In this document: positions 42,233-42,372 of the stretch, piece by piece | Numbering within the stretch: the stretch's first letter is position 1 | Layout of the letters: each line of letters begins with the position of its first letter | Position numbers and translations under genes: made by a program | The notes under the pieces: generated by a model | Told to the model about the DNA's origin: nothing | Database searches by the model: none | Seen by the model: only the letters and a program-made list of their open reading frames with translations | DNA from: Escherichia coli | GTDB lineage: Bacteria; Pseudomonadota; Gammaproteobacteria; Enterobacterales; Enterobacteriaceae | NCBI RefSeq assembly: GCF_009931435.1 | Contig: NZ_CP043414.1 | Length of the DNA stretch: 64,000 bases | Direction: 5' to 3' (one strand)

Positions 42233-42372
42233 ATCAACACCAACCGGAACCTCCACCACGTGCTCGAATGAGGTGTGTTGACGTCGGGGGAAACCCTCCT
42301 GTGTACCAGCGGGATAGAGAGAAAGACAAAGACCGGAAAACAAACTAAAGCGCCCTTGTGGCGCTTTAGTTT
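42233..42372 (+). ncRNA. ryjA: Small RNA RyjA, antisense-overlapping the soxR 3' end (boundaries approximate)
   Basis: Plus-strand intrinsic terminator AAAGCGCC-cttgt-GGCGCTTT + AGTTTTG at 42347-42374 overlapping the soxR stop; position matches where ryjA sits in K-12 as I recall; the 5' end is inferred from the expected ~140-nt length. Confidence 0.45.

Follow-up and report, generated by a model that had tools for sequence, protein, structure and literature searches.

The plus strand of positions 42233..42373 in the 64-kb stretch of Escherichia coli DNA analysed here (hereafter, the window) almost certainly carries the gene for the small RNA RyjA, also named SraL, which is convergent with soxR and shares with it a terminator hairpin that can work in both directions. 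The locus and its terminator overlap with soxR are already known, and nothing about them is new as a discovery: SraL/RyjA, ~140 nt long, has been on record in E. coli from 2001 onwards (PMC3753932), and the SraL terminator has been described as overlapping that of soxR (PMC2190706). A whole-window Rfam scan at the gathering threshold (a score of 39 for RF01408) matched the sraL family RF01408 at 42233..42373 on the plus strand, with 153.3 bits (E = 1.1e-34) and over the full length of the model (positions 1-142 of 142), and direct alignment to ryjA of K-12 MG1655 (b4459, NC_000913.3) gave 141/141 identity. In the curated MG1655 record the ncRNA ryjA (4277926..4278066) is convergent to soxR (4277469..4277933) and overlaps it by 8 nt (4277926..4277933), the same overlap as in the window. 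The first-pass annotation, made from the sequence alone, had recognised a ryjA locus antisense to the 3' end of soxR and had suggested a covariance-model search and an alignment to K-12 as checks; the end-to-end sraL match and the K-12 identity bear it out. Its coordinates, 42233..42372, were right at the 5' end and one base short of the Rfam match and the K-12 annotation at the 3' end. The elements on which the argument turns are these:

42233..42373, plus strand: ryjA (sraL) small RNA gene, 141 nt, from the RF01408 match and the identity to K-12
42366..42830, minus strand: soxR coding sequence, 154 aa, from the ORF list, Pfam, K-12 identity and RefSeq annotation
42366..42373, both strands: overlap of the sRNA 3' end with the soxR coding sequence, 8 nt, from the ORF and Rfam coordinates and equal in K-12
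42342..42372, both strands: bidirectional intrinsic-terminator hairpin, 13-bp stem with loop CTTGT, with an A-run at 42337-42341 and a T-run at 42370-42376

The minus-strand ORF at 42366..42830 encodes SoxR, with MerR and MerR-DNA-bind Pfam domains and 98.7% identity to the K-12 protein. Its companions in the window are soxS (42916..43239, plus strand) and, on the other side of the sRNA gene, ghxP (40471..41820, minus strand), a gene order also seen in K-12. Across 251 aligned columns, the differences from K-12 amount to four SNPs, all upstream of the RNA (window 42178, 42187, 42212 and 42217, that is, -55, -46, -21 and -16) and outside the -10 and -35 hexamers. The locus thus has in common with K-12 ryjA the 141-nt sequence, the convergent soxR, the upstream ghxP, the 8-nt overlap and the terminator, and differs from it by these SNPs within the upstream 85 nt, from which no functional difference is expected. 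Among 5426 complete E. coli genomes the locus was found in 5420, and in 5400 of these the identity of the 141-nt RNA is 99% or higher; the 401-nt region that includes the flanks reaches the same level in only 1031 complete genomes, so the RNA is more constrained than its surroundings. The RefSeq annotation of the best-matching strains contains no ncRNA at the locus, soxR alone being annotated there by PGAP. Since the curated K-12 record has ryjA, this is a gap in annotation and not an absence of the gene. In almost every E. coli genome ryjA is missed by the NCBI pipeline and, because this places soxR alone at the site, chance ORFs appear there in ORF tracks. Elsewhere in the window, Rfam SECIS_2, a bacterial selenocysteine insertion element, matched at 21880-21934 on the plus strand with 87.1 bits, presumably within fdhF, and naRNA4 (CssrE) matched at 1574-1650 (plus strand, 99.2 bits) and 34908-34979 (minus strand, 73.5 bits); the latter two are REP/BIME-type repeat elements.

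Orthologous loci, 45 in number, were collected by one pattern scan of a species-representative genome collection and come from Escherichia, Citrobacter, Salmonella, Enterobacter, Klebsiella, Raoultella, Leclercia, Lelliottia, Trabulsiella, Pseudocitrobacter and other genera. The order pdeC-soxS-soxR-sraL-ghxP holds in nearly all loci where the fetched DNA reaches those genes, and in 43 of the 45 a convergent soxR ends within ~130 nt of the hairpin. One locus, L045, has ~500 nt without a clear gene between sraL and soxR, its terminator being intact. In another, L025 (Citrobacter sedlakii NBRC 105722, 1-1742), soxR and soxS are absent within the available 1.6 kb downstream, where an ORF for a LysR-type regulator (303 aa) and one for a membrane protein (173 aa) follow the intact sraL terminator. 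These two loci rule out that sraL always needs an adjacent soxR, and the retention of the gene in both indicates that the sRNA is conserved independently of physical overlap with soxR. Two contigs labelled 'MAG: Bacillota bacterium' (L022) and 'Chryseobacterium sp. 18061' (L044) carry the enterobacterial ghxP-sraL-soxR-soxS block, with 98.7% identity to E. coli SoxR and 99.8% to GhxP in the former; both have the look of contaminated or mis-binned public assemblies.

The shared hairpin lies within window positions 42340-42379 (acaaactaaagcgcccttgtggcgctttagttttgttcat). The first-pass annotation located its core, AAAGCGCC (42347-42354), the loop cttgt (42355-42359) and GGCGCTTT (42360-42367), followed by AGTTTTG (42368-42374), and was correct in position and sequence; it understated the length of the stem, which is 13 bp instead of 8, because the upstream A-tract pairs with the downstream T-tract. 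A terminator consensus scan describes a perfect 13-bp stem with 6 G-C pairs, whereas folding gives, as an alternative, 16 pairs and one bulge. The 43-nt fold reaches -20.5 kcal/mol on each strand; dinucleotide shuffles give about -6.7 +/- 2.1 (z = -6.6 and -6.7 on the two strands), and 0 of 200 shuffles fold equally well. On the plus strand the 13-bp stem is followed by TGTTCATCTT; behind the GC core stand UUUAGUUUUGUU on the plus strand and UUUAGUUUGUUUU on the minus strand. The scan flagged the hairpin on the plus strand only: if all 13 bp are counted as stem, the tail that remains on the minus strand, GUUUUCCG, contains just 4 U in 8 positions. It is therefore by inference that we assign the use of the hairpin to soxR. 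The stem is kept in 45/45 orthologous loci, two of them with a single U-G wobble, and the helix is almost purely Watson-Crick across loci and thus usable on either strand. As judged from these sequence properties, the hairpin can serve as an intrinsic terminator for the sRNA on the plus strand and for soxR on the minus strand; the bidirectional soxR/sRNA terminator that had been claimed at first reading agrees with the equal folding of both strands and with the published overlap (PMC2190706).

Bidirectional intrinsic terminators between convergent genes have the same palindromic stem with a GC core, set between an A-run and a T-run, and here, likewise, each strand reads a hairpin and a U-tract. 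The differences are that one partner is an sRNA and that, in Escherichia, the stop codon of the other partner is inside the stem. The TAA stop of soxR is the reverse complement of tta at 42366-42368 and falls within the 3' arm of the hairpin, in line with the overlap of stop codon and terminator seen at first reading, and the last two soxR codons (Q and N, 42369-42374) lie in the hairpin arm and the T-run; with the stop in the arm, the sRNA and soxR overlap by 8 nt. Two E. coli genomes have insertions at the terminator. In strain 405 (NZ_CM132948.1, ~3240-3955, corresponding to window ~42344) an IS200C lies between the sraL body and the hairpin, after sRNA nt ~110; the left-end hairpin of the IS200 with its T-run (CCTCCGGCATAGCCGGAGGTTTTT) would now terminate sraL, and the original hairpin stays with soxR. 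In strain AST262 (NZ_AP043637.1, ~577-736, window 42352-42375) a GC-rich repeat of ~161 bp (containing CCCCTCGCCCCTTCGGGGAGAGGGTTAGGGTTAGGGTGAGGGG) is inserted directly behind the sraL terminator, and 24 nt spanning the loop and 3' arm are duplicated; the sraL side has a full hairpin and the soxR side a partial one.

Upstream of the RNA, two promoter elements separated by a spacer of 17 nt can be recognized by their conservation:

42198..42203, plus strand: degenerate -35 element CTGGCG (-35..-30), function putative
42221..42229, plus strand: -10 element TACAAT with the A/T-rich discriminator TAA (-12..-4), TACAATTAA

Among 43 distinct orthologous promoters, A-11, A-9, T-7 and A-5 are invariant, with T-6 at 98% and T-12 at 88%, and the -10 element can be written TAnAnTTAA across the 45 enterobacterial loci. 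The -35 element begins a CTGGCRAA block (-35..-28) in which G-33, G-32 and A-29 never vary, while at least 86% of the same promoters keep T-34 and C-31. By this numbering a conserved C stands at -14, as against the canonical -13. A sigma-S-type -10 with an A/T-rich discriminator has been described for sraL in a discussion of its promoter boxes (PMC3753932), and the sequence at hand, TACAATTAA with a degenerate -35, fits a promoter of the sigma-S type. A simple sigma-70 promoter scan missed the TACAAT hexamer at -12..-7; its own proposal, TTTACA-18-TAACAT, was rejected, as the -10 would end 11 nt before the mapped +1 and outside the conserved block.

Farther upstream, an A/T-rich block at 42162-42185 (sraL -72..-50; AAAAATATTGCGGCTAAAAAG, consensus AAAAATTTCGGCNAAAA) is conserved across genera whichever gene adjoins it, and may serve as an UP element or bind a regulator. 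The 412-bp ghxP-ryjA spacer also contains two of the four exact matches to GCAAACGTT in the window, ACGCAAACGTTTAGCT and GCGCAAACGTTATCGT (41930-41950 and 42075-42092), and a third such site at 41980 with one mismatch. We take these sites to resemble PurR operator boxes, which would be in keeping with a control by purines of ghxP, the guanine/hypoxanthine transporter.

The body of the RNA is organised in two structural domains:

42234..42281, plus strand: 5' domain closed by helix 1 (nt 2-8/43-49), with the invariant CCGGAACCUCC loop region
42283..42327, plus strand: central domain with helix 4 (51-53/93-95), helix 5 (55-57/62-64) and helix 6 (65-70/77-82)

The invariance of sRNA nt 10-22 and 54-64 is by construction, because the search pattern fixes those positions. 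When the Rfam structure was projected onto a 41-sequence alignment drawn from the 45 loci, 96.6% of the cells were paired, compared with 41-56% when the partners were shifted by 1-3 columns. In eight pairs both partners have changed, the observed covariation score was reached by 0 of 500 shuffles, and the compensatory changes are located in helices 1 and 6: in helix 1, 4 of 7 pairs have compensatory double changes and 96.5% of cells are paired, and in helix 6 three pairs have compensatory changes, with UG in 19 and 29 sequences at two positions. The G-U pairs in both helices point to the plus strand as the structured RNA, because they would be A-C mismatches on the minus strand.

An RNA of ~140 nt from this gene has been reported in both K-12 and Salmonella (PMC3753932, PMC2190706, PMC5389530). 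In light of that work and of the sequence, transcription would start at 42233 from the sigma-S-type promoter (TACAATTAA, CTGGCG), and a promoter of this type would cause the RNA to accumulate in stationary phase. SraL does accumulate in stationary phase, its level is ~500-fold lower in a Salmonella rpoS mutant, and its promoter is enriched >100-fold in RpoS ChIP in that organism, Salmonella being the only species in which RpoS dependence has been demonstrated (PMC3753932). PAP I would then add poly(A) to the ~140-nt RNA, and PNPase and the degradosome would break it down, as published Salmonella and K-12 work suggests. For SraL, polyadenylation by PAP I, turnover by PNPase and the degradosome and effects of RNase III and Hfq have been described (PMC2190706); full-length RyjA is polyadenylated in E. 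coli, and in a pcnB mutant its level is up by 3.84 log2, one of the largest increases of any RNA there (PMC5389530).

The RNA would be bound and stabilised by ProQ and/or Hfq, and may act in trans through short, imperfect pairing. The evidence on the chaperones is mixed. SraL is listed among ProQ-associated sRNAs (PMC6315103), and Hfq stabilises it about 3-fold (PMC2190706); Wassarman et al., cited in PMC2190706, did not confirm binding of the RNA by Hfq in E. coli, and a Salmonella Hfq co-immunoprecipitation contained 0 SraL reads. ProQ ligands prefer a hairpin motif of ~12 bp (PMC7192607), which the long hairpin seen here, whose U-tail pairs for the most part with the A-run before the stem, would appear to fit.

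Two targets are proposed for RyjA, which would repress tig (trigger factor) by pairing just upstream of the Shine-Dalgarno sequence and would pair with the rho leader, preventing premature Rho-dependent termination. Both mechanisms were demonstrated in Salmonella and not in E. coli. The 5' region of SraL pairs with tig through 7 + 3 bp just upstream of the Shine-Dalgarno sequence, as proven via compensatory mutations in Salmonella (PMC3753932), and the account of Silva 2019 given in PMC6582626 and PMC7192607 describes pairing with the rho leader that prevents premature Rho-dependent termination, with support from ProQ. Unconstrained RNAduplex predictions against the K-12 tig and rho leaders were rejected, since they gave long duplexes that were no better than those of shuffles (22/300, 42/300 and 168/300 shuffles as good); for this reason an exact-seed search was used, and it yielded one candidate:

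42260..42266, plus strand: candidate tig-pairing seed GUGCUCG (sRNA nt 28-34)

This is the only perfect 7-mer complement between sRNA nt 1-108 and K-12 tig -60..+6. Its complement is tig -29..-23, a short way before the Shine-Dalgarno sequence, in agreement with the published 7-bp segment (PMC3753932), though taken alone it is at chance level, 248 of 1000 shuffles also giving a 7-mer. The K-12 rho leader gave no seed above chance in the same kind of search, its one 7-mer lying at the far 5' edge (-260..-254) and being equalled in 72% of shuffles. SraL of Salmonella Typhimurium (represented by L026) has the family, fold, promoter core, terminator and convergent soxR in common with the E. coli RNA; it differs in that its SoxR has 152 aa and a stop codon ~33 nt outside the hairpin, its upstream neighbour is STM4267 and not ghxP directly, and the regulation of tig and of the rho leader has been shown there only.

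The position of the soxR stop codon varies among the genera. Only the loci of Escherichia and C. amalonaticus (L003, L009, L018, L021, L022, L023, L029 and L033) have it inside the hairpin arm (+133..+137), and these combine a SoxR of 154 aa with a stem that has the Escherichia-type TGTTC/TGCTC tail. In L010 and L032 SoxR also has 154 aa, and the stop (+137..+140) is at the stem edge. The remaining loci encode a SoxR of 151-152 aa, with the stop anywhere from the U-tail to ~130 nt past the stem (0-130 nt outside). The overlap of stop codon and hairpin is lineage-specific and not a general property of the sraL family.

The sequence conservation of the locus might be read in other ways. It is extremely unlikely that the conserved block is only the 3' UTR and terminator of soxR, without a separate plus-strand RNA gene, even though the hairpin is a perfect palindrome that soxR could use and RefSeq PGAP annotates soxR alone in nearly all E. 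coli genomes. Strong conservation reaches ~130 nt past the soxR stop; in a minus-strand RNA the G-U pairs of the body helices (19 and 29 sequences) would turn into A-C mismatches; upstream lies a conserved and correctly spaced pair of plus-strand -10 and -35 elements; and two loci keep sraL although soxR stands ~500 nt off in one (L045) and is missing from the 1.6 kb at hand in the other (L025). In addition, a plus-strand transcript is present in the curated K-12 record and in the Northern blot, RNA-seq and RACE literature (PMC3753932, PMC2190706, PMC5389530). That the locus encodes a protein or small peptide has next to no chance of being correct. A mechanical ORF list does contain reading frames here, among them the following two:

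42113..42379, minus strand: spurious 88-aa ORF antisense to ryjA, without a Pfam family and not conserved
42275..42652, plus strand: spurious 125-aa shadow ORF antisense to soxR, without a Pfam family and not conserved

A 62-aa plus-strand ORF (42160..42348) and a 26-codon ORF starting from an AUG at sRNA nt 36 are further candidates. The 88-, 125- and 62-aa ORFs have no Pfam family at E <= 1, the 125-aa ORF lies entirely opposite the well-supported soxR coding sequence, and across the 45 orthologous loci the ORFs over sraL change frame, start and length between genera, none keeping them throughout. The 88- and 125-aa ORFs do not recur beyond the nearest E. coli-like contigs, and even E. albertii has different ones. 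In many species CUG, ACG or CCG replaces the AUG at nt 36, which is not preceded by a Shine-Dalgarno sequence, and the substitutions are patterned as RNA helices. With neither Pfam matches nor conservation to support them, the coding readings of all four ORFs were rejected; the first-pass annotation had already suspected the 88- and 125-aa ORFs of being spurious, and in place of an alignment to a protein-coding gene the region gave ORFs without a Pfam match that are unconserved outside E. coli.

Accepting a plus-strand RNA gene, we also consider it very unlikely that the main action of RyjA is in cis, as antisense to the 3' end of soxR, through a 3'-3' duplex cut by RNase III or through convergent transcriptional interference, and not in trans. 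The 3' ~32-40 nt of the soxR and RyjA transcripts are perfectly complementary, and Viegas et al. suggested a possible RNase III cut in the SraL terminator, which overlaps that of soxR (PMC2190706). Against this, the coding overlap is merely 8 nt and is limited to Escherichia and C. amalonaticus, the stop being 0-130 nt outside the hairpin in other genera, and two loci (L025 and L045) retain sraL without an adjacent soxR. The best-conserved parts of the RNA are its 5' and central domains, which have no complement in soxR; trans targets have been validated via compensatory mutation (PMC3753932), and the literature that names soxR together with both names of the sRNA reports no effect on soxR.

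A narrower link in cis can be conceived for the lineages with the stop codon in the hairpin. In Escherichia and C. amalonaticus SoxR would have gained two codons, with the result that its stop now lies within the hairpin. A ribosome at the stop codon, covering the 5' arm of the hairpin in the soxR transcript, could weaken soxR termination, and the resulting read-through transcription would run antisense into sraL. Conversely, strong sigma-S-driven transcription of sraL could lower stationary-phase expression of soxR, as could a 3'-3' duplex cleavable by RNase III. It is the geometry that permits such coupling, and we hold it to be unlikely. In the divergent soxR/soxS promoter region, a perfect palindrome, CCTCAAGTTAACTTGAGG, occupies window 42843-42860; we take it to be the site at which SoxR is expected to bind the soxS promoter.

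The practical value of the assignment is in annotation, as an RNA gene replaces spurious ORFs at this site. The refinement added by the cross-species comparison is that the placement of the soxR stop codon inside the terminator hairpin is limited to Escherichia and C. amalonaticus. Should the coupling in cis, improbable as it is, prove true, it would amount to a lineage-specific link of the general stress response to the superoxide sensor.
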